A DNA stretch of 64,000 bases from Shigella phage Sf25, in sequence record MF327009; one strand, 5' to 3'. The translations under genes were made by a program, and so were the position numbers. Below the pieces are notes generated by a model, which saw nothing but the letters and a program-made list of their open reading frames with translations, was not told the origin of the DNA and made no database searches. Of this stretch, positions 10,811 through 52,919 are shown piece after piece (the first letter of the stretch is position 1; each line of letters starts with the position of its first letter).

Positions 10811-11226
10811 TCATATCATCGTTAGAAAGGAAAGTAAACAACTTTTTGAATTATTTTGCCCAGGGAGCCCAAGGCGGAGGGTCAAGATGGTATGAAGCTA
10901 GTTCTTCTAGAAGAGCATCTGGGGCTTCAATTCCATAATTCTGTAATACTATACGGTACTCTTTCTTATAATCACTAGAATCATTCTGGTTATTCGTAGA
11001 ATGATTATCTTCTAACATTCATATCATCGTTAGAAAGGAAAGTAAACAACTTTTTGAATTATTTTGCCCAGGGAGCCCAAGGCGGAGGGTCAAGATGGTA
11101 TGAAGCTAGTTCTTCTAGAAGAGCATCTGGGGCTTCAATTCCATAATTCTGTAATACTATACGGTACTCTTTCTTATAATCACTAGAATCATTCTGGTTA
11201 TTCGTAGAATGATTATCTTCTAACAT
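10811..11226. repeat. exact tandem duplication, 2 x 208 bp
   Basis: Unit tcatatcatcgttagaaagg...gattatcttctaacat occurs twice head-to-tail with no mismatch; covers codons 6-60 and 3' flank of the small ORF 11059..11241. Confidence 0.85.
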
Positions 11227-13530: not shown

Positions 13531-14308
13531 TTAATAGCCTCGATCTTGACGAGCGAAGTTTTCAGCATTTTTCAGATAATAAAGTTTAAAGATTTCCTCA
13601 GCTGACATTCCAAGAGCAATGAATTTATTCATGAAAAAGTGAAATTGGTCAATCAGTTCAAATTTAATTTCAAGCTGATCTTCAGGAGATAAGTCTTGAA
13701 TTTTCTTGGATTGCATTTCAGAATAACGTTTCTTCCAAGGTTTCCATACAGCAGAAGCTTCTTTTTCACCATTACTCATACCACCAAGAGAAGTATATAG
13801 CTCGCGAGTTTCATCTGCGATATAATCGTCTTGGTTTCGCAACCAAGCAAGAACTTCTCCTGCAGTTTCAAGTGAATCAGGATGACGATTTGTTTCTGGT
13901 TTATCATTAGCCAAACGAATCTGTAAATGCCGCTGCATGTCAAATTTTCTTGGATTGCATTTCAGAATAACGTTTCTTCCAAGGTTTCCATACAGCAGAA
14001 GCTTCTTTTTCACCATTACTCATACCACCAAGAGAAGTATATAGCTCGCGAGTTTCATCTGCGATATAATCGTCTTGGTTTCGCAACCAAGCAAGAACTT
14101 CTCCTGCAGTTTCAAGTGAATCAGGATGACGATTTGTTTCTGGTTTATCATTAGCCAAACGAATCTGTAAATGCCGCTGCATGTCAAGCATAACCTGCAA
14201 TGGGTCAATACTGTGCATAATATACTCAGCATATGCACGATTTGCTTTATCAACACCTTCGATCAAATGAGCACATTCATTAAAGTGAGCCATTATTTTT
14301 CCTTTCAA
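13531..14308 (-). pseudogene. 56: dCTP pyrophosphatase gene 56 (MazG-like) disrupted by a 244-bp tandem duplication
   Basis: Two overlapping ORFs (13940..14308 and 13531..14016) share an identical 81-aa block; removing one repeat unit restores one ORF of about 171 aa at the gene 56 position between soc and dam. Confidence 0.7.
13699..14186. repeat. exact tandem duplication, 2 x 244 bp, inside gene 56
   Basis: Head-to-tail identical copies; unit length not a multiple of 3. Confidence 0.85.
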
Positions 14309-22536: not shown

Positions 22537-23381
22537 TCACCGTTATAATCTTTTTTCACAATATGAGTTTCGCCAGTATTCCACCAATGATCAACCAAGT
22601 AAAAATGACGAGAATATACATGAAGACTTCCAACATTCCATATAATAGAACCTGCTTTATACTGACGAGTTGAATCGCCGGCATTCAAATCAGATACTAA
22701 TTTATCTAATACGTATTTTTGCCATGCATAATCATTACGGAATCCGAAGACCACGTCATTTGAGCGCATGCTTACTACTGCATTGACTTTCTTATCACGA
22801 ATCAGGTACTGTACTGTATTAGTACACATGAAATCTGACATACCATCTTTATTGTAGTCAAATTGCATGGATGGACGAGTCATGCTTACTACTGCATTGA
22901 CTTTCTTATCACGAATCAGGTACTGTACTGTATTAGTACACATGAAATCTGACATACCATCTTTATTGTAGTCAAATTGCATGGATGGACGAGTATAAAT
23001 CATGATACCACGTCGAGAATCAGGATTTTGACCAAGTTCAGCTAAACACATATCATACTGGGCATAGTTATCTTCTGACCAAATAGCCCAACCATAATTC
23101 GAGTTAATTTCGCCTTTAGAAGATGCTACCTGCTGCCAAATCTTTGGTGTTTCGCCTGGAATATCTTTGACAAACAGACTTTGAGACTTGTACCATTCAA
23201 GTTCACGCTGAATGTATTCATCATTAAGAGCGCCAAAAATAAAGGGTTCATCTGCTACAAATGATGCGCCAATAATTTCAATAGTTTTAACACCGGTTTT
23301 ATCAACTACGAAATCTTTTTCTTTTAATGCAAGCCCCAAATGAAGACGGATTTCTTCAACTGTCATAAAGTCACTAATCAT
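22527..23381 (-). CDS. 42: dCMP hydroxymethylase gp42 carrying an in-frame 38-aa tandem duplication (284 aa)
   Basis: Thymidylate-synthase-like fold; peptide VNAVVSMTRPSMQFDYNKDGMSDFMCTNTVQYLIRDKK occurs twice. Confidence 0.85.
   Translation of the reverse strand: MISDFMTVEEIRLHLGLALKEKDFVVDKTGVKTIEIIGASFVADEPFIFGALNDEYIQRELEWYKSQSLFVKDIPGETPKIWQQVASSKGEINSNYGWAIWSEDNYAQYDMCLAELGQNPDSRRGIMIYTRPSMQFDYNKDGMSDFMCTNTVQYLIRDKKVNAVVSMTRPSMQFDYNKDGMSDFMCTNTVQYLIRDKKVNAVVSMRSNDVVFGFRNDYAWQKYVLDKLVSDLNAGDSTRQYKAGSIIWNVGSLHVYSRHFYLVDHWWNTGETHIVKKDYNGEWK
22767..22994. repeat. exact tandem duplication, 2 x 114 bp, inside gene 42
   Basis: Identical head-to-tail copies, in frame. Confidence 0.85.
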
Positions 23382-24601: not shown

Positions 24602-27445
24602 TCAGCCAAACAGGAAGTCTAACGAAGCTTTTTCTTCATAGTCCATACCAGCCGATTCACACATGCCTGCAAGCGGTTTAACAAACGATTTTTGGAACAA
24701 AGTTGAGTAGTCAATCCAAGACAGTACGTCAGAACGAATTTCTTTTGGAAGTTCTGTACCCGACGGCCAAGCAATGCATTTGTCACCAAATGGATTTCCT
24801 TCACGCAATGGAAGAACCATTACTTTATTTCCATCCAAAATTGGAGCTACACCTAAACCGCTAACAGCTCGACGATAAGTTAGCACACCACGAATATGGA
24901 ACGGACATTTAAATCCTGGCCAACCTTTATCATCATATTTCGCTATATCGTTCGCAGTTTTTACTTCAGCAATAACTTTATAGTCAAGTTGACGATATTC
25001 TTTCTCGAAGTTCTTGTAATATTCTTGGACAGACTCTTCACCTTCCTGAAGAATACGACGAATACTTTCTTCGAGAGCTTCTTGGACCGCTTTAGGCGTT
25101 GAACTCTGCTGAGTTTCCATACCCATGATTTTTAGATGCGGTTCAGCAAATCGCTTATCTTCCATATCATATACGTTCAGAGCATAACGCTTTTTCGCTT
25201 TCCAAAATCCGCCAACGCCCTTTGAACCAAGTGGAGGGCAAGAAATAGCTTCACGGTCCATATGCATCAGATGCTCGCGGTTATTCATATAATCACATAA
25301 CTCACGATATGCAACATCAATCATAGGTTCCATCTTTTTCTTACCGAACTGATTCATGAATTCAACTAAATCGTTCTGCTCTTTGAATCGGTCAAGACCA
25401 ACTTTTTCAATAACTTTATCTACACAAACATATACCGAATCAGTATCACCTGCTGCAATGAAATCTTCGCCATTAGTTCCGCATACTTTATTCAGATATT
25501 CATTAATTTTACGAGCAATCCACTGAATACCAACTTGGCCGAAAATTGTGATAGCAGTAGCATTTCGCAAATCATAGTAACGGAAATGAATATTACCAAG
25601 AGCACCATAAAGACTGTTAATAAGAATTTTACGGTTCAGCTGATTTGTGTTAGCAAGTGTAGCTGCTTTTTCACACTCTTCGATCAAACTATTAAGAACA
25701 GATTCGGTGTAATTCGATAGTTCATTTAAGAAATCATCACTGAACTTAACATATCGTTCAACTTCTGGTTTAGTTGAGCAAGACCCTGCGCCTTTCATAA
25801 TAATCTTTTTAATAGCTTCGGCATTCATTTCTTCAGCGAACATTTTCTTTTTCCAATCTTTACGCTGGAAAAATACTTTAGCGATTTCCTTTGGAATGAT
25901 ACCTTCTTGATGCTTATCATACATCCATCCATTCGGAGAACAAGAATATTCATCACTCGGTTTAGGAGCTGTTCCTGCGATATATTCATGAATTGGATGA
26001 ACTTTAAACTGACCACGAATAGTCTCAGGACTAATGTTAACCTGACGAATAATGCTCGGATACAGAGACGTCAAGTCAAAACTCATAATATATCGACGAG
26101 CAATTGGTTTAGGTTCAAACACAAATGCACCCGGAAAACTCTGTTTAACGTGCGAACCTTGTTGAGGAATAACCTTATGTTCACCTTTCAATGAGTTAAA
26201 AATAATAGCATCCCAAGTTTTAATAGGACTCATTACACCGGAAAAAGGCATTTTAGCGTAATAAGACATACTTAAAACTAGATCGATAAACCCGCGAATT
26301 TTATCAATTGCTTGAACTGATTCTACGTCAATGATGTTATAACTAATGTATCGTTGATGATTAGTCTCACGAAGTTTATTAATAGGACCGTCGTATGGTA
26401 ATTTACCTTTTTTGGTTTCATGTTGAGCAACTGATTCCAAAGAGAATGACGGCAAATTAGTAAAAGCGAATTTCTTGTACAAATCTAAATAATCAAGAAT
26501 AGATACGCCATCAATAGAATAAATTTCTTTGCTGCCGTACATATTTTGAATTAGTTTGGATTTTACCCGACCGATTGGAGAGAAACGTTTCATACTGCGT
26601 TCGCCTAGAATCATTTTAACACGATTCATGATATATGGAACGTCAAACCCCTCAATATTCCAACCGGTAAAAATAGCAGGTCGTTTCTGTTCCCAGAGAT
26701 TGATATATTCCATGAGCATATCACGCTCATTATCGAATGGCATATAAATTACTCGGTCAAGAATTTCTTGAGGAACTTCATCACCACCTTCACAGTCAAG
26801 CTTAGCAGCTAACTTTGCATCCCATTTTGATACTGAACCGTACATTGAATTCAAAAGGTCGAAAACATAAAAACGATCGTCAATTGAATCGTAATGAGTG
26901 ATAGCATCAATTTCATATTCAGCTTTCATTGGGTCAGGAAATTTATCACCAGTAACCTCAATGTCACAGTTAGCTACACGAACACCGTACATTGAATTCA
27001 AAAGGTCGAAAACATAAAAACGATCGTCAATTGAATCGTAATGAGTGATAGCATCAATTTCATATTCAGCTTTCATTGGGTCAGGAAATTTATCACCAGT
27101 AACCTCAATGTCACAGTTAGCTACACGAACAAATTTTCGGTCATAAACAATTTCTGAACCATATGTATCACTGATATAAGCGAGTTTAAAATCGTTCATA
27201 CCGAGAGCTTCGAGACCGATGTCTTCCATTCGCTTCATCCAATCTCGAGCATCTTTCATTGATGGAAATTTTTGAGGAGCGCAGTTTTTACCATAGATGT
27301 CTTTGTACTTTGACTCTTCCTTACAATGCCTAAACATAGTTGGAAGATATTCTACTTCACGAGTACGTTCCTTTCCATTTTCATCAATATAACGTTCAAC
27401 AATATTATTTCCGACTGTTTCAATAGAGATATAAAATTCTTTCAT
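24602..27445 (-). CDS. 43: DNA polymerase gp43 (family B) carrying an in-frame 49-aa tandem duplication (947 aa)
   Basis: Exo I (CDIEVTG), DTDS polymerase motif, KKRY; T4 gp43 is 898 aa; duplicated block RVANCDIEVTG...LLNSMYG. Confidence 0.95.
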   Translation of the reverse strand: MKEFYISIETVGNNIVERYIDENGKERTREVEYLPTMFRHCKEESKYKDIYGKNCAPQKFPSMKDARDWMKRMEDIGLEALGMNDFKLAYISDTYGSEIVYDRKFVRVANCDIEVTGDKFPDPMKAEYEIDAITHYDSIDDRFYVFDLLNSMYGVRVANCDIEVTGDKFPDPMKAEYEIDAITHYDSIDDRFYVFDLLNSMYGSVSKWDAKLAAKLDCEGGDEVPQEILDRVIYMPFDNERDMLMEYINLWEQKRPAIFTGWNIEGFDVPYIMNRVKMILGERSMKRFSPIGRVKSKLIQNMYGSKEIYSIDGVSILDYLDLYKKFAFTNLPSFSLESVAQHETKKGKLPYDGPINKLRETNHQRYISYNIIDVESVQAIDKIRGFIDLVLSMSYYAKMPFSGVMSPIKTWDAIIFNSLKGEHKVIPQQGSHVKQSFPGAFVFEPKPIARRYIMSFDLTSLYPSIIRQVNISPETIRGQFKVHPIHEYIAGTAPKPSDEYSCSPNGWMYDKHQEGIIPKEIAKVFFQRKDWKKKMFAEEMNAEAIKKIIMKGAGSCSTKPEVERYVKFSDDFLNELSNYTESVLNSLIEECEKAATLANTNQLNRKILINSLYGALGNIHFRYYDLRNATAITIFGQVGIQWIARKINEYLNKVCGTNGEDFIAAGDTDSVYVCVDKVIEKVGLDRFKEQNDLVEFMNQFGKKKMEPMIDVAYRELCDYMNNREHLMHMDREAISCPPLGSKGVGGFWKAKKRYALNVYDMEDKRFAEPHLKIMGMETQQSSTPKAVQEALEESIRRILQEGEESVQEYYKNFEKEYRQLDYKVIAEVKTANDIAKYDDKGWPGFKCPFHIRGVLTYRRAVSGLGVAPILDGNKVMVLPLREGNPFGDKCIAWPSGTELPKEIRSDVLSWIDYSTLFQKSFVKPLAGMCESAGMDYEEKASLDFLFG
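26837..27130. repeat. exact tandem duplication, 2 x 147 bp, inside gene 43
   Basis: Identical copies, in frame; includes the Exo I motif. Confidence 0.85.
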
Positions 27446-39502: not shown

Positions 39503-39973
39503 TTAATCATGTTTCCACACCCCATCGGTATTTGACCAAAGTCGCTGATTATCTGATCCTCGCCACAGCTTTTTGGTCGGAAGATTTTTCTCATACTTCC
39601 CATCAATAATAACATCAACATATTTAAGCATTTCTAGTTGTTTAATATCTTCAAATTTATATCCTGTCCACAACCAAATGCTTTTATTGGGATAAAGATT
39701 TTTTACTGTTTGAACAATGCAATGAACAACATCTCGGTTATCAGGATAGAGAGGGTCTCCTCCAGTTATAGTTAATCCTTCTATATAATCATTATTCAAA
39801 CATTCAATTAATTGTTCTAGTGTTTCACCAGTGAATGGAACACCGTTTCTAGCGTTCCATGTTGATTTATTATAACACCCTTCGCATTTATGCAAACAAC
39901 CTGTAACGAAAAGAACGACCCTGCAACCAGGGCCATTCACAAAATCACAAGGATAAAATCTATCATAATTCAT
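39503..39973 (-). CDS. nrdG: anaerobic ribonucleotide reductase activating protein NrdG (radical SAM), 156 aa
   Basis: CxxxCxxC cluster (CLHKCEGC); stop/start overlap with nrdD. Confidence 0.85.
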   Translation of the reverse strand: MNYDRFYPCDFVNGPGCRVVLFVTGCLHKCEGCYNKSTWNARNGVPFTGETLEQLIECLNNDYIEGLTITGGDPLYPDNRDVVHCIVQTVKNLYPNKSIWLWTGYKFEDIKQLEMLKYVDVIIDGKYEKNLPTKKLWRGSDNQRLWSNTDGVWKHD

Positions 39974-40227
39974 TGATGCTTAACCCTATGCATGATTTCT
40001 TTATTTTTACCGAGATTAAATCCGCGCTCGTTAGGATTTCCCAAATAACCAACACCCTTCGCATTTATGCAAACAACCTGTAACGAAAAGAACGACCCTG
40101 CAACCAGGGCCATTCACAAAATCACAAGGATAAAATCTATCATAATTCATTGATGCTTAACCCTATGCATGATTTCTTTATTTTTACCGAGATTAAATCC
40201 GCGCTCGTTAGGATTTCCCAAATAACC
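39874..40227. repeat. exact tandem duplication, 2 x 177 bp, at the nrdD/nrdG junction
   Basis: Identical copies; second copy carries an orphan duplicate of the nrdG start region and a duplicate nrdD 3' end. Confidence 0.8.
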
Positions 40228-44066: not shown

Positions 44067-44309
44067 TTATTCCTTAATTCCTAGTACTTGTTTAAAAGTC
44101 TCGTCGTAATCAAGACTTTGACCCGTTTGTTCTTTATGTTTGTATATAATATCACTTACTTCTGATAGCATATTTTTATATGAACGAGTTAAAGCAGATT
44201 TAAGCACGCTGTATCTATCAGGAAATTTACCATGTTCATTATAATAAGCTATTGCTAATTCACGGACTGCCTTTTCAGCAGCCTCCATATATTCTTTACG
44301 CTTGGTCAT
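44067..44309 (-). CDS. hypothetical protein
   Basis: ORF track. Confidence 0.4.
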
Positions 44310-44311
44310 TT

Positions 44312-44701
44312 TTAATCCAAAATATTATTAGGCATTGGTTGAACACTCACAAGTTCTTTAAAGAACTCAGTAGAGTCAGGCAATTTAACCATTTCCGGAG
44401 CATGCTTACTGAATTTATGTTTACATTGACGGCATTTATATTCAAGCTCTGGTTTACGCCAGTTAATCAATTGAACTTGTTCAGTACCGCATTCAGGGCA
44501 ATTAGGAACGTTTTTAGAAGCCCTTTCACGACGTTCAACCATAACCATAATAGCATCCCATGCTGGAGGTTTAAAATCTAAATCGTCGCAGCCGTGAATC
44601 TTTCCACGCATTTCCATATCATCTTCCTCACCAGCCATAATAATTTTAATTAAACTGGAATTACTTGAAGCTGCAATGTCTTCTAATAAACGCTTTTTCA
44701 T
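44312..44701 (-). CDS. zinc-ribbon containing hypothetical protein
   Basis: CPECG...CRQCKHKF. Confidence 0.45.
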
Positions 44702-45447
44702 TTCAATACCTCAATAGCATTACGTAAACCATTTGCTTTTGCATTAAGAGCTTTTAACAATTTGGTGTGTTCTGCAATTTGGGCTTCAACTTCAATCAAA
44801 CGGGCATTGAGATATTCACGTTCTTCACTCAGATTATCAACCTTTTCTACTTTAGGCTCTTTTACAACTGTCTTATATGTATTAGGGTTCTTCAGTTTAA
44901 TTAGAATGCGTGAACTGTATAACATTGAACCATTATCTTCGGTTTCGTCATACATTTCCACTACGTCCATAATTTTTAACATCATGCGGAGTTTATAAGA
45001 CAACGAACGAATAGTTTTGTTGTGCTTATTAATTTCTTTAGCTGTCATGGTGCCAAGATTACGTGAGTAATAATAAGGAACCTGGATATTAATTAATACT
45101 GATGAACCACCTGGCTTGTGTGTTACTTCATCAGCAATAACCCAGTCCTTAACATGAACTGTATTTGTACGGTCATCGCCCGCGGTAAATAGTTTGCGAG
45201 CATGCTTAAAAAGCATATTCACTTGGTCATTGAATTGACAAGCAAATTTATCAGCAAATTTAGTTTCAGGAATGGTAGAAAACCAATCAGCCAAATGAGT
45301 CTTTTTAACATCATTAACAATAGTAAATTCAACCAAATCGGTTATAGATGTCTCAGATTTAATGAAGCTCGGCTTCATAAAGTTTTTAATGTTCTCATGA
45401 GCTACAGTAGAAGATAACATACGAGAACGTTTAAACCATTCAAGCAA
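44698..45447 (-). CDS. hypothetical protein with C-terminal coiled coil
   Basis: C-terminal heptad-rich segment. Confidence 0.45.
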   Translation of the reverse strand: MLEWFKRSRMLSSTVAHENIKNFMKPSFIKSETSITDLVEFTIVNDVKKTHLADWFSTIPETKFADKFACQFNDQVNMLFKHARKLFTAGDDRTNTVHVKDWVIADEVTHKPGGSSVLINIQVPYYYSRNLGTMTAKEINKHNKTIRSLSYKLRMMLKIMDVVEMYDETEDNGSMLYSSRILIKLKNPNTYKTVVKEPKVEKVDNLSEEREYLNARLIEVEAQIAEHTKLLKALNAKANGLRNAIEVLK

Positions 45448-45632
45448 ATTGCCTAACGAATGAGAATAAGCGTTTTGAGTATCTTTACAGATATGATTTT
45501 CCTGACCAACATATTGAAGGAAATCACGAAGAATATTATTGATTACTGCTCTGTGTCCTATCTGATAATTACGATGTTTAGTAATAAGACTGTGGTTAAT
45601 GGTTTATACTCCGAGCCATACTTGGCTTTAAA

Positions 45633-46934
45633 TTACTTAATTAACTGTAAAGCTTGTTCAAGACGATCAAGACGATTAACGGATTCTTCCCAAATCTTTT
45701 TAGCACTTTCATATTCTTTTTCTGCTTTATTTTTAATTTCTAAAGCTTCTTTATAAGCTTTTTCTAGTGCAATAACTTCTGGACGAATTTCTATTGGCTC
45801 AGGAGAATCATCGAGCCAATCCATCAATTCTTCAAGTGTGGTTTCTTCTTTAGGAGCATTCACAATTTCTTCACATTTCTTCTGATGAATTTCTTTATCT
45901 GTTAGTGAATAAGCACATTTCACTTCACGAAGACTAATTACAATTTTATATCCTTCCCATCCGCATATATTCTTAAAAGGATATGTATGAATATTTTCTA
46001 CTGTTTCCATACAAAGTAATGCAGTCTCTAACTGACGAGTTATAGTGCTAGCAATTGAGAAAAATTTATTAATATTCTTTTGGTTAGCGTTTGGTGTAAA
46101 AAATCCATAATTCACAAAAATAGCTACTTTATTTTCATCAAGCTCATATTCTAGTGAATAAGCACATTTCACTTCACGAAGACTAATTACAATTTTATAT
46201 CCTTCCCATCCGCATATATTCTTAAAAGGATATGTATGAATATTTTCTACTGTTTCCATACAAAGTAATGCAGTCTCTAACTGACGAGTTATAGTGCTAG
46301 CAATTGAGAAAAATTTATTAATATTCTTTTGGTTAGCGTTTGGTGTAAAAAATCCATAATTCACAAAAATAGCTACTTTATTTTCATCAAGCTCATATTC
46401 TTTTACGATAATCATATCAGAAGCCAAAGGATGAATTTGACGATAATCGCCATAACATAATTTAGAAGCTGATTTTAGAATTTGTCCTTTGAAAAGTCTG
46501 AAATTACTAATCCAACGACGAGTAAAAATATTCTCAGGGTCTTCTTTATTATTAAGATGATAAGAATTAACATCACCGAACCAATTATATCCTACTACAT
46601 CTTTGGTTCGTTTAATTTCTTTCCCAAAATTACCAAGAATATCCCGATTAACCAAATATGAAAGAAGACGAGACTCTTTAAAGGTTTTCTTGATATTATC
46701 TTTATCTACACGGCTAGAAATTTTACGAATTTCATGAATAAATTTAGTAGAAGAAACAATACTTGCATCAACACTATTGAGCCATTGATTGATAATGGAA
46801 AGAACGATATTTTGACCAAACATCGGTATAGCTTTATCATCAATAACGCTATTGAATGATTTGATATATTCGTTACGAGTCATATTAATCTCCTCAGTAG
46901 AAAGTAAGAACATTATACCACATCCTTGTGGCAA
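45633..46934 (-). CDS. hypothetical protein with C-terminal coiled coil, carrying an in-frame 83-aa tandem duplication
   Basis: Block EYELDENKVAIFVNYGFF...REVKCAYSL repeated twice; shares FRLFKGQILKSASKL-like motif with next ORF. Confidence 0.5.
   Translation of the reverse strand: MPQGCGIMFLLSTEEINMTRNEYIKSFNSVIDDKAIPMFGQNIVLSIINQWLNSVDASIVSSTKFIHEIRKISSRVDKDNIKKTFKESRLLSYLVNRDILGNFGKEIKRTKDVVGYNWFGDVNSYHLNNKEDPENIFTRRWISNFRLFKGQILKSASKLCYGDYRQIHPLASDMIIVKEYELDENKVAIFVNYGFFTPNANQKNINKFFSIASTITRQLETALLCMETVENIHTYPFKNICGWEGYKIVISLREVKCAYSLEYELDENKVAIFVNYGFFTPNANQKNINKFFSIASTITRQLETALLCMETVENIHTYPFKNICGWEGYKIVISLREVKCAYSLTDKEIHQKKCEEIVNAPKEETTLEELMDWLDDSPEPIEIRPEVIALEKAYKEALEIKNKAEKEYESAKKIWEESVNRLDRLEQALQLIK
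45903..46400. repeat. exact tandem duplication, 2 x 249 bp
   Basis: Identical head-to-tail copies, in frame. Confidence 0.85.
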
Positions 46935-46941
46935 AGTAAAC
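46912..46941 (-). promoter_or_regulatory. early-promoter-like site
   Basis: Minus strand reads GTTTAC-N17-TGGTATAATG. Confidence 0.45.
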
Positions 46942-48215
46942 TAGTTCAGTGCATTTAGTGCATTGTTCAGTTTAGAACGTTGCTTCGTGAGATTTTTGAC
47001 TTTTTCTTGTGCTTTTTCTAGCATCTTTTCAGCTTCTAACACTTCATTGGTCGCTTTAACGAGTTCATCATCTACTGCCTTAAGGGACTTCTCAATCGCA
47101 TCCGCGTGCCATTTTTCAACAGGTTTAAGACTCGGATTTTCAATAGGAAGAAAATTCACTTTATTGAATTTCCATGCATCTTTATTACCTGAACTATACA
47201 TCCAAAATTTAGGATCGTTTGATGAGTAATTGGATAAATTTAAATTTAAGTTATCTTGCACTTCTTGCTTTTTCTCTTGCGTGACTTCGTCCTTTCTCAA
47301 AAAATCGTATTTAAATGAAACGATCATATCAAGTTCATATGTTGTTGTGTCTAATTTAAATCGTTCGAAATGCTGTGAAATCTTAGACTGAATAGGAAGA
47401 AAATTCACTTTATTGAATTTCCATGCATCTTTATTACCTGAACTATACATCCAAAATTTAGGATCGTTTGATGAGTAATTGGATAAATTTAAATTTAAGT
47501 TATCTTGCACTTCTTGCTTTTTCTCTTGCGTGACTTCGTCCTTTCTCAAAAAATCGTATTTAAATGAAACGATCATATCAAGTTCATATGTTGTTGTGTC
47601 TAATTTAAATCGTTCGAAATGCTGTGAAATCTTAGACTGAACAGCAGCAACAACATCCATATACTTAAATGCTTCTGTCAACTGTGATTTAAGACATTCG
47701 CAAATTGAAAGAGAATTTTTTGTATTAGGTTTAAAGCTAATTCGTGCAGTTCTATTATTTTCTTTTAATGGTCTTACTTCCATCTGAAGAGTATAACCAT
47801 CAAATTTCAGGTTCTTTAAGTTAATATCAGAACCTTTTAATCGACTCGCAGTTGATAAAATTTGCTTTAATTGTCTACGGAATAGAGCAATAAATCTCCA
47901 TTCAATACGATAATGATTTGGATTGAAAAATCCAGATGATAAATCGACCTTACTTTGACCAACGCCTTGAACAAATAGAGGATTTTTATAATCAATAGTT
48001 TTACAGAAATCGGTTAGCTGCTCACGAGCAGTCATTTGTGTAATATACCCCGCTTTACTAAAATGACGTAACCATTCACTGCTATTCATATATTTAAAGT
48101 GAATATCACGATTAACTTTATCAGGGTCTAAATTATTTTGGCACAAAAATGTCATAACATCACGAGTATAGCTGGCATTACGAATCATATCTTCAATTTG
48201 AGAACGAGTTTTCAT
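46941..48215 (-). CDS. hypothetical protein with C-terminal coiled coil, carrying an in-frame 83-aa tandem duplication
   Basis: Block QSKISQHFERFKLDTTTYEL...KVNFLPI repeated twice. Confidence 0.5.
   Translation of the reverse strand: MKTRSQIEDMIRNASYTRDVMTFLCQNNLDPDKVNRDIHFKYMNSSEWLRHFSKAGYITQMTAREQLTDFCKTIDYKNPLFVQGVGQSKVDLSSGFFNPNHYRIEWRFIALFRRQLKQILSTASRLKGSDINLKNLKFDGYTLQMEVRPLKENNRTARISFKPNTKNSLSICECLKSQLTEAFKYMDVVAAVQSKISQHFERFKLDTTTYELDMIVSFKYDFLRKDEVTQEKKQEVQDNLNLNLSNYSSNDPKFWMYSSGNKDAWKFNKVNFLPIQSKISQHFERFKLDTTTYELDMIVSFKYDFLRKDEVTQEKKQEVQDNLNLNLSNYSSNDPKFWMYSSGNKDAWKFNKVNFLPIENPSLKPVEKWHADAIEKSLKAVDDELVKATNEVLEAEKMLEKAQEKVKNLTKQRSKLNNALNALN
47142..47639. repeat. exact tandem duplication, 2 x 249 bp
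   Basis: Identical head-to-tail copies, in frame. Confidence 0.85.
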
Positions 48216-48223
48216 GGTGTTCC

Positions 48224-49381
48224 TTAAGATTTAAGTAAATCAACAATTTTAATTAACTTTTCACGCTCGGATTTAGCTTTACTACTCAGTCCAGATAGTC
48301 TGAAAATTTCATCATCATATTGTTGAATAGAAATATTCAGCTCTTCAATCTGTTTATTAAAATAATCAATTTGTTCAGAATGTTTTTCGTTACTACGAAC
48401 TGGTACAGGTTTTGTAGGCAATTTAGTTGAACTGGATTCATCCGGGCGATAAATTAAAATACAACTTGAACCAATAGGGCATTTTGCACCAGATGAATAT
48501 TCTAATGTTCCAGCTTCTTTTAAAACTTCAAAAGCTAAACAGAGATGATGCCCCATATTAACATAATCTGTAGAGTGAGCTCTGATCAGCTCTTCAATCT
48601 GTTTATTAAAATAATCAATTTGTTCAGAATGTTTTTCGTTACTACGAACTGGTACAGGTTTTGTAGGCAATTTAGTTGAACTGGATTCATCCGGGCGATA
48701 AATTAAAATACAACTTGAACCAATAGGGCATTTTGCACCAGATGAATATTCTAATGTTCCAGCTTCTTTTAAAACTTCAAAAGCTAAACAGAGATGATGC
48801 CCCATATTAACATAATCTGTAGAGTGAGCTCTGATGTAATAATCATCTCCACGAATACTAAATTTAAAGCATTTAAGGTCTTCTGTATTATTGGTCTTAA
48901 AAATCATTTGTTTATCTAGACCTTTAGCTAATCGAGCGCCTAATGCTAATAATCGTCGTTGATTTTCCCACAAATCCGCAATCATTTGATCGAATGATAA
49001 TTTCGGCATTAGTCGACCATAAAGGTCATATCCTTTATTATAATTGCGAAGGATTTCACTCGCATTAATACGAGACAACGCTCCAATTTTATTAAGGGCT
49101 TTCATGATGCGATTAGATAAACCCATTCCAGACCCGTTTGTTCGTTGTAAATGTTTATCTAATCCAAACCCAATATCAACTTTAAATTTATCTAAAATTT
49201 CAGCATGAACATCTCTGTCAATAACATTCAAATCCAAAGTTTGGTTAAATCTATGAAAAAATTTATCTGGCTCTCCACGACGAAGTACAGTCCATTCATT
49301 CAATTTTTTATTAACTAAAGATTTAATTACTGCATTGACATTATTAATTACTACTGACATATTTTCCTCACTCAATTTCAA
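48224..49381 (-). CDS. hypothetical protein with C-terminal coiled coil, carrying an in-frame 83-aa tandem duplication
   Basis: Block IRAHSTDYVNMGHHLCLAFEV...NKQIEEL repeated twice. Confidence 0.5.
   Translation of the reverse strand: MKLSEENMSVVINNVNAVIKSLVNKKLNEWTVLRRGEPDKFFHRFNQTLDLNVIDRDVHAEILDKFKVDIGFGLDKHLQRTNGSGMGLSNRIMKALNKIGALSRINASEILRNYNKGYDLYGRLMPKLSFDQMIADLWENQRRLLALGARLAKGLDKQMIFKTNNTEDLKCFKFSIRGDDYYIRAHSTDYVNMGHHLCLAFEVLKEAGTLEYSSGAKCPIGSSCILIYRPDESSSTKLPTKPVPVRSNEKHSEQIDYFNKQIEELIRAHSTDYVNMGHHLCLAFEVLKEAGTLEYSSGAKCPIGSSCILIYRPDESSSTKLPTKPVPVRSNEKHSEQIDYFNKQIEELNISIQQYDDEIFRLSGLSSKAKSEREKLIKIVDLLKS
48337..48834. repeat. exact tandem duplication, 2 x 249 bp
   Basis: Identical head-to-tail copies, in frame. 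Confidence 0.85.
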
Positions 49382-49775
49382 TTTTACTAAATATACAGAA
49401 TAAGATGGAACAGACTATATAAGCACCACACACAGATTGAACTAATACCATTCCAAAGAACCAAACAATATTATCAAACAATGTCTGTTTTACGTCGAAA
49501 GGACGTAAACTTACAGTAATATTATCGCCTTTTTCTATTGATGAATACATCTCTGGTGAAATATATTCGCTAAATCTATAACCGTCTTTGAGTTCATATA
49601 CGGCAATAAACGATAAACTAGACCCCTTTACTTGAGTTCCTGTAAGGGTATTAACTACAGTAACATCATAATCTTTATAATGCATATAATCATTAATTGC
49701 GTAATAACCATATGCAACTACTACACATAAACAACATATCAATAAATTCAATCTTTTAATTATCAACTGTTTCAT
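49368..49775 (-). CDS. membrane protein
   Basis: N- and C-terminal hydrophobic helices. Confidence 0.4.
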   Translation of the reverse strand: MKQLIIKRLNLLICCLCVVVAYGYYAINDYMHYKDYDVTVVNTLTGTQVKGSSLSFIAVYELKDGYRFSEYISPEMYSSIEKGDNITVSLRPFDVKQTLFDNIVWFFGMVLVQSVCGAYIVCSILFCIFSKIEIE

Positions 49776-49830
49776 AATAATCTCAGTTAAAAGGGCTTAG
49801 AACCATTATACCATCCTTGGTATAAAGCTG

Positions 49831-50358
49831 TTATGCGAGTACCGTCTTTAACCGTTCTTCAAACTTCCGAAGAGTATTCTGGCGTTCAGCTCTTTGCTTT
49901 TTATAAGTTTCAATACGCTCTGAAATGAGAGTGTATCGTTCATTTACTGATTCTTTCATAAAATCAGGAATTTCACGAGAAGCTTTAATCTCGTCAAATT
50001 TATCAATAACAGCTTGCTCTTCAGCAATTAAGTTATCATACATCAAAATATCTTTCTTGATGAACTCAATATCTTCTTGAGTTACACGAGATAATTTAGA
50101 TGCTTTATCCTTTTTGTACTGTTCGTTAGTATCACGAGACCAGTGTAATGTACGATTTTTATTCGTATTCTTGTAAATTTCTACAATACCAATCTCATCA
50201 ATAATAACGATCCAATTCCAACGTGATTTGTAAATTTGTCCTCCATCAACAGTGATTTCACCTCCGATTGAGATGTCGTTAAAGAACTTGCTTTGTGCTT
50301 CAGATTTAAATTTACCATCGTTGTAATTTACCAAGTTGAAAATATCTTTAGCGTTCAT
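49831..50358 (-). CDS. hypothetical protein with C-terminal coiled coil
   Basis: ORF track. Confidence 0.4.
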   Translation of the reverse strand: MNAKDIFNLVNYNDGKFKSEAQSKFFNDISIGGEITVDGGQIYKSRWNWIVIIDEIGIVEIYKNTNKNRTLHWSRDTNEQYKKDKASKLSRVTQEDIEFIKKDILMYDNLIAEEQAVIDKFDEIKASREIPDFMKESVNERYTLISERIETYKKQRAERQNTLRKFEERLKTVLA

Positions 50359-50418
50359 TTTCTGTTCCTCCGTAGTTGATAGTTGTATAGTACCACAGAG
50401 GAACAGTCTTGTAAACCA

Positions 50419-50733
50419 CTAAAAGAAACTTCTTTCACAATTTTTTCCACTGAACCATGCACTTACCGCTTTCTTAGTCTCAGGAGCAGTGTTATCCATA
50501 AACCATTCAAAGGCAGCCTTTTTATGATTCTGGAGGGCTTCTCGGGCTTTAATCTGCTCACGGTCTATTAACACTAACATATGAGCCTTTCTTGTCACCA
50601 TGGGCTTCTTATGATTTTTTGAATACTCCCAGTCATTTGTCCATCGCATTGTCGTTGCGAACTGAAATACTGCTTCTTTAATTTTAGTTTCGTAAATTTC
50701 ACGAGCCTTTGAGTATAACATCATTACCTCCAT
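50419..50733 (-). CDS. hypothetical protein
   Basis: ORF track. Confidence 0.4.
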   Translation of the reverse strand: MEVMMLYSKAREIYETKIKEAVFQFATTMRWTNDWEYSKNHKKPMVTRKAHMLVLIDREQIKAREALQNHKKAAFEWFMDNTAPETKKAVSAWFSGKNCERSFF

Positions 50734-50822
50734 TCACCGGTTTAATTCTAGTCATCTTTTTAATGGCAGTCCATATAATCTATTTCTGAACTGCCTTTTT
50801 GTCATAGAAGTCCTCTTATGAA

Positions 50823-51857
50823 TTATTTCAGAAGAGTAACCTCAGCAATTTCTTCCCAACCGTTTTTGTCGGTCATAATAAAGTCAGCAAGATAAAGAGC
50901 AGTACGCAGTGAAACATTGCGTAAACGATTAACATTAACTTTCATCCATGATAATGCTTTATAAGTTTCTTCATCAGAAAGACCGCGCTTTTGCATCATG
51001 TCAGTTGAAAGAATAACATCTTCAACCCTGACCATAATTTCTTCATTAGTGTGAACACCCAAATCTAAATAAACCGAGCGGGACACTAATGCTTGTAAAT
51101 GTGGAGCAAGTTTAGTACCACGGTCTAATTCGCGGTCAATGTCAACGTTTGTGATAAAAACAATCGTTCCTTTAAATTCAAACTCACGCTCAATGCCTTT
51201 TTCTTCTAAGTAAGAAGACGCAGTGCTCCAGCAGACTTTACGGGTCTCTCCAGTGTCCAGAGCGGCTTTTAGAAGATTAAGAATGTCCATATCAGAGAAA
51301 ACATCCACATCATCAATCAAAAGGACAGAATTCTCTTCACGATTATTCCAAAGCTGTTCATAAAGACCGATACCAGAGATTTTACCATTAATGCTTTTAT
51401 ATTCAATGTATCCAATATCATTTGCTTTATTTAAAGCTTTATCTAAAGAATACGTTTTACCAATACCTGCTGCACCAGAGATAATTAATGAACGAATGTT
51501 TCCGTTAATAATACCATTCGTCATCATTCCCATAACATTAAATCTTTTATTAATGCGGGTTTTCATATCTTCATACGATTCTTTAACTTCTTCAACTTTT
51601 ACACCATCATATGAAATGTCTGATTTGTAAACCCAAACACCGCGACGCTTACCGTCAATTTCAACAAAAACTTTACCATCTCCTTGCGCATCTACTGGAG
51701 CATTATCAGGGAACCACTCACCTAAGAGTTCAAAAGTTCCAGAGATTTCTTTGCCAAAGTAGATACCCTTATTGATAGTTACAGTTTTCATTTTATTCTC
51801 CAAATCCGCATCAGTTGATAGTTGTATAGTACCATAAAGCTTTATGCTTGTAAACAA
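50823..51857 (-). CDS. AAA+/P-loop ATPase
   Basis: Walker A GAAGIGKT, Walker B LLIDDVD. Confidence 0.55.
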   Translation of the reverse strand: MFTSIKLYGTIQLSTDADLENKMKTVTINKGIYFGKEISGTFELLGEWFPDNAPVDAQGDGKVFVEIDGKRRGVWVYKSDISYDGVKVEEVKESYEDMKTRINKRFNVMGMMTNGIINGNIRSLIISGAAGIGKTYSLDKALNKANDIGYIEYKSINGKISGIGLYEQLWNNREENSVLLIDDVDVFSDMDILNLLKAALDTGETRKVCWSTASSYLEEKGIEREFEFKGTIVFITNVDIDRELDRGTKLAPHLQALVSRSVYLDLGVHTNEEIMVRVEDVILSTDMMQKRGLSDEETYKALSWMKVNVNRLRNVSLRTALYLADFIMTDKNGWEEIAEVTLLK

Positions 51858-51879: not shown

Positions 51880-51904
51880 AAAAAAGGGAGCCCGAAGGCT
51901 CCCT
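51880..51904 (-). terminator. strong intrinsic terminator
   Basis: Minus-strand hairpin GGGAGCC-TTCG-GGCTCCC followed by TTTTTTATTT. Confidence 0.7.
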
Positions 51905-51905
51905 A

Positions 51906-52919
51906 TCATTTATAATAACTTCGGTGGTTTTCAAGATAAACCCTCTCAAGGAAGTCATCCCAAAAACTCATGTCTACTTTTTGCTGCATACCGTTCTTAG
52001 AAGCTTCAGTAGATGCTGCTTCTACTTGATCGACCACATCTTCCAAAAACTCTTGAACTGTTTTAAATGGATGTTTACCCAACTTCACGTCGAGAATAAA
52101 TGGAGCATCTTGGAGTGGATAGACTAAGTCACCAGTTTTGTAAATTTCCAATAGTTGAAGTCCACCACGACAGGCATGGCTCAGAGCTTTCCAGTCAATG
52201 CCCTCATTCGCTTCAGCCTTACGAGCACGTTCGCCGTATTCAGCATCAAGTTTATTCAAAGACTGCTTAAGCTCAATAAGAGAAAGTGTTGTCTGATATT
52301 TACGACCCAACACAGTATAGAACGTTTGCGGCCCTGTTTTCTCATGATTATGGAATACCCATTCGCAGAATTCGTTTTCTGGAAGACGATGCTTAATATC
52401 TTCAACTTTAGTACGACGCTGCTTAATAGAACCATCTTCTTGGTAATCAATCCACTGCTCAGGAATTTGATTAACTACTTTCAATACATCACGTAATGCA
52501 GCCAAACGAGAACCCTTGACACCGTATTTAGAAGCTTGCTTGCGAACATATCCTAAATAGGATTTCATGTTAGTCGTATAAAAACGAGAACGGTTGTCTT
52601 GAATAAACTTCCACACATCAGGCAAATCAGATTTAACCACTAGTTCAGGTGGAGTGTGAAGCATATCCAACGCTACAGTTTCACCATCTGCTGCTAATTT
52701 AAAGAAATATTTAAGACTGTATAGTTCATGGTCAATATCATCTTTAGTGTTTTTAGATGATGTATTGTTGGTATTTTTACTCATATGCTCTTTAACATTT
52801 CCGATAAGAATATCACGAGCAGGAGGAACAAAGATTTCTTTAAAATCTACATCAGATTCTGGGGTAGAAGTTCCATAAAGATGACTACCAAAATAGCTTT
52901 TCATTACTGTTTTCATCAT
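51906..52919 (-). CDS. predicted pol-beta-superfamily nucleotidyltransferase
   Basis: N-terminal GS...YG...DxD motif (FGSHLYGTSTPESDVDF). Confidence 0.5.
   Translation of the reverse strand: MMKTVMKSYFGSHLYGTSTPESDVDFKEIFVPPARDILIGNVKEHMSKNTNNTSSKNTKDDIDHELYSLKYFFKLAADGETVALDMLHTPPELVVKSDLPDVWKFIQDNRSRFYTTNMKSYLGYVRKQASKYGVKGSRLAALRDVLKVVNQIPEQWIDYQEDGSIKQRRTKVEDIKHRLPENEFCEWVFHNHEKTGPQTFYTVLGRKYQTTLSLIELKQSLNKLDAEYGERARKAEANEGIDWKALSHACRGGLQLLEIYKTGDLVYPLQDAPFILDVKLGKHPFKTVQEFLEDVVDQVEAASTEASKNGMQQKVDMSFWDDFLERVYLENHRSYYK

Follow-up and report, generated by a model that had tools for sequence, protein, structure and literature searches.

In phage T4 the gene nrdC.5 has been linked to the defeat of a bacterial defence. 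A T4 clone that had acquired deletions during evolution could no longer plate on Escherichia coli ECOR17 owing to the Dsr1 sirtuin defence, and plasmid-expressed T4 nrdC.5 restored plating on MG1655 carrying ECOR17 dsr1 (PMC9391042). The sensor domain of Dsr1 was reported to recognise phage major capsid proteins (2026 preprint, PMC12803255). The DSAD1 protein of SPbeta-like Bacillus phages acts, according to two reports, by binding the sensor region of DSR2 (PMC10973363, PMC10981675). Literature searches on nrdC.3, nrdC.4, nrdC.6 and nrdC.8 yielded incidental mentions only, with no functional treatment of the first three in the papers searched. In our study, these genes were examined in a stretch of 64,000 nucleotides (nt) of the Shigella phage Sf25 (sequence record MF327009), called the window here. 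The window belongs to a T4-like phage of the genus Tequatrovirus, and its minus strand carries nearly all genes. We found that nrdC.3 to nrdC.6 are best explained, with a probability of about 0.62, as a tandem array of fast-diverging paralogs of T4-like phages, in which the tail oligomerises, the heads bind host targets and the internal duplications are defects of the record.

A sequence-only reading of the window had described five consecutive open reading frames (ORFs) as a modular family of effectors or adaptors, with unrelated N-terminal domains, a common heptad-rich C-terminal helix, an internal motif shared by two of the proteins and three duplications of 249 base pairs (bp). The comparison with the nrdC genes of T4-like phages which it suggested was made with the annotated relatives NR1, Sf24 and T4, and the five ORFs were found to be the orthologues of nrdC.3, nrdC.4, nrdC.5, nrdC.6 and nrdC.8 by sequence and synteny. 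The region 44300-50800 was 97.9% identical to that of the Shigella phage Sf24, and 742 phage records matched it. A membrane protein gene, nrdC.7, is present between nrdC.6 and nrdC.8, and nrdC.9, nrdC.10 and nrdC.11 are located upstream. The genes nrdC.3 to nrdC.8 are long-catalogued T4-type early genes and their presence in such a phage is ordinary.

Heads and tails of the NrdC.3 to NrdC.6 proteins

The family alignments were built from T4, Sf24, SP18, Bp7, MM02, EcWhh-1, and MN01, and the last 60 residues were removed for the heads-only comparisons with hhalign. Four profiles compared with 44 unrelated ORFs of the window (176 comparisons) served as the null, where the minimum expect value (E) was 0.0063. 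The nrdC.3 and nrdC.4 proteins share PHROG 1435, the profile of which matched the Sf24 orthologues over the full length (E 8e-117 and E 3e-169, respectively), and BLASTP aligned the two with 25.5% identity over 231 amino acids (aa) of the head. The heads-only comparison of nrdC.3 with nrdC.4 gave a probability of 97% and E 1.5e-11, followed by E 1e-4 for nrdC.4 with nrdC.5. At full length, nrdC.3 and nrdC.5 were aligned over 278 collinear columns (E 2.4e-6, probability 86-89%), and deeper alignments yielded similar values. The nrdC.5 protein matched Pfam DUF7235 with 464.2 bits against a cutoff of 30, and its position between nrdC.4 and nrdC.6 is conserved in T4-like genomes. The protein databases tag nrdC.3/4-like proteins as PF26897 and nrdC.6 as PF26899.

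The joint alignment of nrdC.3, nrdC.4, and nrdC.5 contained shared blocks over the whole length, from an M(K)TR..(E)YI start through F.(K/R)S..LS..(V/A)R..L..F and M(D/E).V blocks to the tail. The motif noticed earlier in two ORFs was found in nrdC.4 (FRLFKGQILKSASKL) and nrdC.5 (FRRQLKQILSTASRL) at equivalent positions of the collinear alignment, with FNDQVNMLFKHARKL in the same block of nrdC.3; judged from the alignment, it is one conserved block of a shared head. A profile of nrdC.5 and nrdC.4-like sequences found 17 matches at E<=0.001 among 1.84 billion representatives, and therefore the family is narrow in sequence space. One of these matches, the protein P0189, was found to contain an nrdC.4-like head and an nrdC.5-like tail.

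The nrdC.6 protein was more distant. Compared with the joint profile of nrdC.3, nrdC.4, and nrdC.5, it gave E 6.8e-4, which is below every control E, with a weak probability of 27% over 70 columns. These columns placed the nrdC.6 helices 81-91, 94-106, 123-132, and 134-144 on the nrdC.5 helices 46-55, 58-69, 104-115, and 117-128, respectively. AlphaFold monomer models cover an nrdC.5 orthologue (mean predicted local distance difference test score, pLDDT, of 64) and nrdC.6 (mean pLDDT 79), and both models contained, in the same order, a helical domain, a strand-strand-helix-strand-strand module, a low-confidence linker and a terminal helix. In a Foldseek search of BFVD, both models matched the same six uncharacterised proteins almost from end to end; these belong to the T4-like phages IME523 (Enterobacter), Cronus (Erwinia), Mineola (Klebsiella), CBH8 and PS2 (Serratia), and PM2 (Pectobacterium). 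From the weak profile match together with the similarity of the models, we regard nrdC.6 with moderate confidence as a fourth, older paralog. The predicted architecture common to nrdC.3 to nrdC.6, which the models of nrdC.5 and nrdC.6 show directly, comprises a helical N-terminal domain with an R-x-x-L-x-x-(I/L)-L-x-x-A-(S/R)-(R/K)-L block, the strand-strand-helix-strand-strand module, a poorly ordered linker, and an amphipathic terminal helix of about 50-58 residues. The heads of nrdC.3, nrdC.4, and nrdC.5 are thus not unrelated as had been supposed, since they are collinear beyond the null, and that of nrdC.6, the model of which follows the same order of elements, is probably related to them.

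The all-against-all comparison detected no relative of nrdC.8: against the profiles of nrdC.3 to nrdC.6, in head or tail, all E values were at least 0.03 and within the null. With no profile comparison beating the null and a marginal heptad signal (p 0.058), nrdC.8 was rejected as a member of the family in which the sequence-only reading had placed it.

The tails were examined with a heptad scan, for which a COILS-type matrix was calibrated only on the window's own ORFs and shuffles. When the 91 ORFs of 80 aa or more on the minus strand were ranked, nrdC.5 was 1st, nrdC.3 3rd, nrdC.4 4th, nrdC.6 6th, and nrdC.8 11th; the 2nd place was occupied by a 546-aa ORF, which from its position and size is presumably part of the Rad50-like gp46. 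The high-scoring stretch covered the C-terminal 50-58 residues of nrdC.3 to nrdC.6; in nrdC.8 it covered the C-terminal 33. Shuffles of the last 56 residues, which separate heptad phase from composition, gave the highest z for nrdC.5 (4.5, p <0.001), followed by nrdC.3 (3.3, p <0.001) and nrdC.6 (3.3, p 0.003), whereas nrdC.4 (1.8, p 0.044) and nrdC.8 (1.7) were borderline. A heptad-rich C-terminal helix in all five ORFs, as had been claimed, is therefore clear for three of them, with coiled-coil propensity found for nrdC.3 to nrdC.6 and a marginal signal in nrdC.8. In the best-scoring prediction, nrdC.3 to nrdC.6 had their heptad register placed alike relative to the ending that they share, (K/R)-L-x-x-(A/I)-(L/I/V)-x-(L/V/A)-(L/I)-K. 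The model of the nrdC.5 orthologue contained a single uninterrupted terminal helix (286-341), whereas that of nrdC.6 contained two, 242-271 and 277-294, with a kink between them, so that the terminal helical part spans 53-56 residues in the two proteins; in both models the tail stood free of the head, with tail pLDDT of 65-92. The tail was the best-conserved segment, or among the best-conserved, in most orthologue comparisons. As far as prediction goes, nrdC.3 to nrdC.6 do have a coiled-coil tail in common at the C-terminus, and this tail may plausibly oligomerise.

Searches for known folds were made with the same proteins. The Foldseek comparison of the nrdC.5 model with solved structures gave a best E of 0.019, to small ferredoxin-like or tail-terminator-like pieces. 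Solved structures were also searched by sequence, with profiles of nrdC.5/4 and of nrdC.6 and with nrdC.8 itself; no match was meaningful, the best being to a keratin coiled coil (E 0.68). NCBIfam contained no match for the nrdC proteins and Pfam recognised DUF7235 alone; no thioredoxin or glutaredoxin family was found in either scan. Homologues of nrdC.3 to nrdC.11 are called thioredoxin in many records, and the label appears to have been copied from the neighbouring gene nrdC; with no thioredoxin-fold match, it is wrong for nrdC.3 to nrdC.6 and nrdC.8. A paper of 2026 treated nrdC.8 as a nucleotide reductase (PMC13275509). No reductase domain was detectable in the homologues of nrdC.3 to nrdC.11.

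Variation among relatives and duplications in the Sf25 record

The family was found to vary between relatives in presence, sequence, and integrity. The nrdC.3 alleles of otherwise near-identical phages had 60% identity. Along the gene (L002 43756-44685 compared with L004 6057-6983), identity was 86-90% in the first 60 aa, 36-56% in the central block and 76-100% in the tail, which suggests, from the sequences, allele replacement between conserved ends. In the genomes compared, the nrdC.3-type gene was absent in Gaprivervirus and Dhakavirus phages and the nrdC.4-type gene in the Mosigvirus MM02, and the copy number of the family differs between phage genera. The nrdC.5-like gene of SP18 was split into two ORFs, gp093 and gp092 (L005 5038-5942). 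The nrdC.6 of the T4 reference (L004 3023-3850) contained 275 aa and ended in IEELIFLFNNMMMKFSDYLD, where a frameshift replaces the coiled-coil tail that is present in Sf24, Sf25 and other genera. The annotated nrdC.8 of Bp7 (L006 3366-3917) had an unusual C-terminus, GRSIVRTPASRTSGRAPIA, probably produced by a frameshift.

Hybrids of neighbouring genes were also found. Manna_094 of the Salmonella phage Manna (L010 4215-5252) was an in-frame nrdC.6::nrdC.4 fusion with the nrdC.6 head and the nrdC.4 linker and tail, joined at (D/E)EI with an overlap of about 22 nt. P0056 was an in-frame nrdC.5::nrdC.3 fusion, and ACG-C40 (L011 4805-5216) contained an out-of-frame nrdC.5/nrdC.3 remnant. By their sequences, these three are deletion products between neighbouring paralogs, by which no foreign heads would have been acquired. 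Presence and absence, allelic mosaicism and decay together fit the pattern of accessory host-range genes.

The five ORFs exist in the window and their stop positions were as first described, whereas the starts of nrdC.3, nrdC.4, and nrdC.6 had been misplaced (Table 1). The nrdC.4 and nrdC.6 genes start at the ATG at 46883 and 49360, respectively. The frame 44698..45447 was found to be only the tail end of nrdC.3, opened by the first in-frame TTG of a frame that has lost its start. Compared with the phage NR1, nrdC.3 has lost 47 bp, and with them its ribosome-binding site, its ATG, and its first 12 codons; the deletion may be a genuine null allele or a further error of the record.

Table 1. Positions in the Sf25 window of the nrdC genes, their tails and motifs, and the tandem duplications.
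Feature	Position	Strand	Details
nrdC.3 remnant	44698..45603	-	301 open codons, no start codon; 309 aa in relatives; translation and NR1 alignment
nrdC.3 deletion junction	45593..45594		47-bp loss, removes translation start
nrdC.4	45633..46883	-	416 aa here; 333 aa without duplication
nrdC.5 (Pfam DUF7235)	46941..48215	-	424 aa here; 341 aa without duplication; orthologue of the T4 anti-Dsr1 gene
nrdC.6	48224..49360	-	378 aa here; 295 aa without duplication; PHROG 2257
nrdC.8	49831..50358	-	175 aa; PHROG 2274; small separate family, C-terminal half helical
nrdC.3 heptad tail	44701..44868	-	last 56 aa; heptad scan and shuffle
nrdC.4 heptad tail	45636..45785	-	last 50 aa, ends RLEQALQLIK; heptad scan and shuffle
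nrdC.5 heptad tail	46944..47117	-	last 58 aa, ends KLNNALNALN; scan, shuffle, and AlphaFold helix
nrdC.6 C-terminal helices	48227..48388	-	kink at SGLSS, ends KLIKIVDLLKS; scan, shuffle, and AlphaFold
Head motif, nrdC.4	46458..46502	-	aligned columns of collinear alignment
Head motif, nrdC.5	47838..47882	-	aligned columns of collinear alignment
Head-motif counterpart, nrdC.6	48917..48961	-	QRRLLALGARLAKGL, set by hhalign opposite the nrdC.3/4/5 motif
249-bp duplication, nrdC.4	45903..46401		83 aa, in frame; absent from relatives
249-bp duplication, nrdC.5	47142..47641		perfect tandem
249-bp duplication, nrdC.6	48337..48835		perfect tandem
Duplications outside nrdC.4 to nrdC.6	10811-11226, 13699-14187, 22767-22994, 26837-27131, 39874-40227

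Eight perfect two-copy tandem duplications were found in the window, of 208, 244, 114, 147, 177, 249, 249, and 249 bp, with 0-2 nt of microhomology at the junctions; three of the eight fall in the adjacent genes nrdC.4, nrdC.5, and nrdC.6. The 208-bp and 244-bp duplications were out of frame, and the latter splits gene 56 into two ORFs. Gene 56 encodes dCTPase and is essential in T4. Going by position relative to Sf24, the 114-bp duplication is presumably in gene 42 and the 147-bp duplication in the DNA polymerase gene. A split gene 56 is unlikely in a viable phage, and therefore all eight duplications were read as assembly artefacts, which they probably are. No duplication was longer than 249 bp, and at a guess this would fit reads of 250 nt. 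The three duplications of the nrdC genes were missing in the relatives examined, where the best matches spanned about 5800 bp of the 6501-bp query and the NR1 orthologues were without them. The duplicated nrdC.6 formed a singleton cluster, whereas the normal form was found in hundreds of copies. The genes had thus been correctly recognised as bearing the 249-bp duplications, but these are peculiar to the Sf25 record and most likely an artefact rather than part of the biology of the family.

The nrdC.6 of the window was identical, residue for residue, to Sf25_gp220 of NCBI, including the internal duplication, and the 378-aa form has passed into NCBI, UniProt, and BFVD (A0A2K9VMF6) as 'thioredoxin'. 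As the public databases contain this form, a deliberate alteration of the window was rejected as the origin of the duplications. Several assembly-type duplications of the Sf25 record have apparently been carried into protein and structure databases. Equivalent positions of the three 249-bp duplications in the paralogs were also considered and were rejected by reading of the joint alignment: the nrdC.4 copy begins close to where the small mixed module has its first strand, and the nrdC.5 and nrdC.6 copies begin later and run into the linker or the tail.

Explanations of the array

In the explanation that we prefer, the tail would oligomerise each of the four proteins and the variable head would bind a host immune protein. 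The nrdC.5 protein, which is known to neutralise the Dsr1 sirtuin NADase, would probably do so by direct binding and early, before the late capsid protein appears. The nrdC.3, nrdC.4, and nrdC.6 proteins would most plausibly counter other host defences in the same manner. The missing start of nrdC.3 and the three 249-bp duplications would be defects of the genome record, probably of assembly. Several points weigh against this explanation. Only nrdC.5 is known to act against a defence, and the head had no match among solved structures and named domains. The link of nrdC.6 is a weak profile match joined to model similarity, where the nrdC.5 model is mediocre, and among the full-length matches inspected of the nrdC.5 and nrdC.4-like profile no nrdC.3-like or nrdC.6-like sequence was present. 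The heptad signal of nrdC.4 is marginal, monomer AlphaFold models cannot show tail oligomers, and the duplications are read as artefacts on indirect evidence.

Other explanations were weighed against the same evidence. If the terminal helices were only charged and amphipathic, alike by descent and composition, they might form no coiled coils at all and might instead pack on the head or bind a partner. The marginal heptad phase of nrdC.4 and nrdC.8, the kink of the nrdC.6 tail at SGLSS, and the limits of monomer models count for such plain helices. The nrdC.6 of the T4 reference is tail-less by frameshift, so that growth in the laboratory, at least, does not require the tail; this counts on the same side. 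However, the heptad phase was strongly above the shuffles in nrdC.3, nrdC.5, and nrdC.6, the phase was alike relative to the terminal motif in all four in the best-scoring prediction, and the helices of 50-58 residues stand clear of the head in the models; we therefore consider plain helices unlikely. We likewise consider it unlikely that the family has a general role in taking over the host or in the physiology of the phage, for example as scaffolds or early regulators, and that the effect of nrdC.5 on Dsr1 is indirect. The nrdC.3 to nrdC.8 array is transcribed in one direction among genes of nucleotide metabolism and host shutoff, and structure and sequence searches found no similarity to known anti-defence proteins, both of which would suit such a role. 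On the other side, the genes are non-essential, evolved T4 lost them at a cost that depended on the host, and accessory host-range genes typically show such variation and decay.

The lowest probability was given to unrelated heads shuffled onto a common, exchangeable oligomerisation tail, with nrdC.8 included, which we consider very unlikely. The conservation of the tail, the exchange of tails in the in-frame natural hybrids Manna_094 (nrdC.6/nrdC.4) and P0056 (nrdC.5/nrdC.3), and the helix-rich end of nrdC.8 were in favour of such shuffling, whereas the collinear heads of nrdC.3, nrdC.4, and nrdC.5, the element order and structural neighbours that nrdC.6 shares with nrdC.5, and the lack of any relationship of nrdC.8 in head or tail were against it; the hybrids, moreover, are deletions between adjacent paralogs and not acquisitions of foreign heads. 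The proposal of effectors or adaptors on a common tail was thus borne out in part: the tail family of nrdC.3 to nrdC.6 stands, an effector role fits the anti-Dsr1 activity of nrdC.5, and natural in-frame hybrids exist, but the heads are not unrelated modules and nrdC.8 is outside the family. A bolder form of the preferred explanation, in which nrdC.3 to nrdC.6 would work together as a combinatorial toolkit against defences, is a doubtful extension at present. There, each head would be specialised for an immune sensor of its own in the host (Dsr1 for nrdC.5), near-identical heptad tails would allow homo- and mixed oligomers, and the conserved ends would be recombination handles for hybrids such as the Manna nrdC.6::nrdC.4.

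With nrdC.3 to nrdC.6 as a tandem array of paralogs, four separately filed families are joined here into one proposed family of paralogs that have a tail in common. If nrdC.3, nrdC.4, and nrdC.6 are whole-length paralogs of nrdC.5 with the same tail, they are three candidate counter-defence proteins.

Neighbouring genes and known systems

The genes on both sides of the array were also inspected. The nrdC.2 gene (44312-44701) had a weak, sub-threshold Pfam match to a zinc ribbon, and its translation contained two C-x-x-C pairs (CPEC ... CRQC). For nrdC.10 (50823-51857), a putative AAA-type ATPase, the Pfam matches were weak and below threshold, to NTPase families of the AAA and STAND types; nrdC.11 (51906-52919) was found to encode an RlaP-type nucleotidyltransferase (E 1.7e-11). 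Between nrdC.11 and nrdC.10 (51885-51904), a strong GC-rich hairpin was the only terminator standing out. Promoter-like sites were at chance level, with 47 found and 42.9 expected.

The family may be compared with other phage genes of this kind. Like the nrdC genes, tifA, dmd, adfA, and ipIII of T4 are non-essential, are lost without cost on laboratory hosts, and are needed on particular strains; they differ in that they are unrelated in sequence to nrdC.3 to nrdC.6, lie at other loci, and do not form a four-copy paralog array. A functional analogue of nrdC.5 is DSAD1, another phage protein by which a defence-associated sirtuin NADase is switched off. The two were not found to be related, and DSAD1, of Bacillus phages, targets DSR2 and not Dsr1.

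The closest counterparts are the T4 proteins themselves. The nrdC.5 of the window is orthologous to T4 NrdC.5 and is located in the same place between nrdC.4 and nrdC.6, and the Sf24 protein is about 94% identical to that of T4. The neutralisation of Dsr1 was reported for the T4 allele, to which the Sf25 nrdC.5 is likened by sequence. Unlike T4 NrdC.5, the Sf25 record contains an 83-aa internal duplication, which was absent from every other family member retrieved. Similarly, nrdC.3, nrdC.4, and nrdC.6 of the window are orthologous to those of T4 by sequence and synteny, with no assigned function in either phage; unlike the T4 genes, the Sf25 nrdC.3 is without a start and nrdC.4 and nrdC.6 bear duplications. 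T4 NrdC.3, NrdC.4, and NrdC.6 are filed in databases as three or four separate families, whereas here they are joined with NrdC.5 in one proposed superfamily that has a tail in common.

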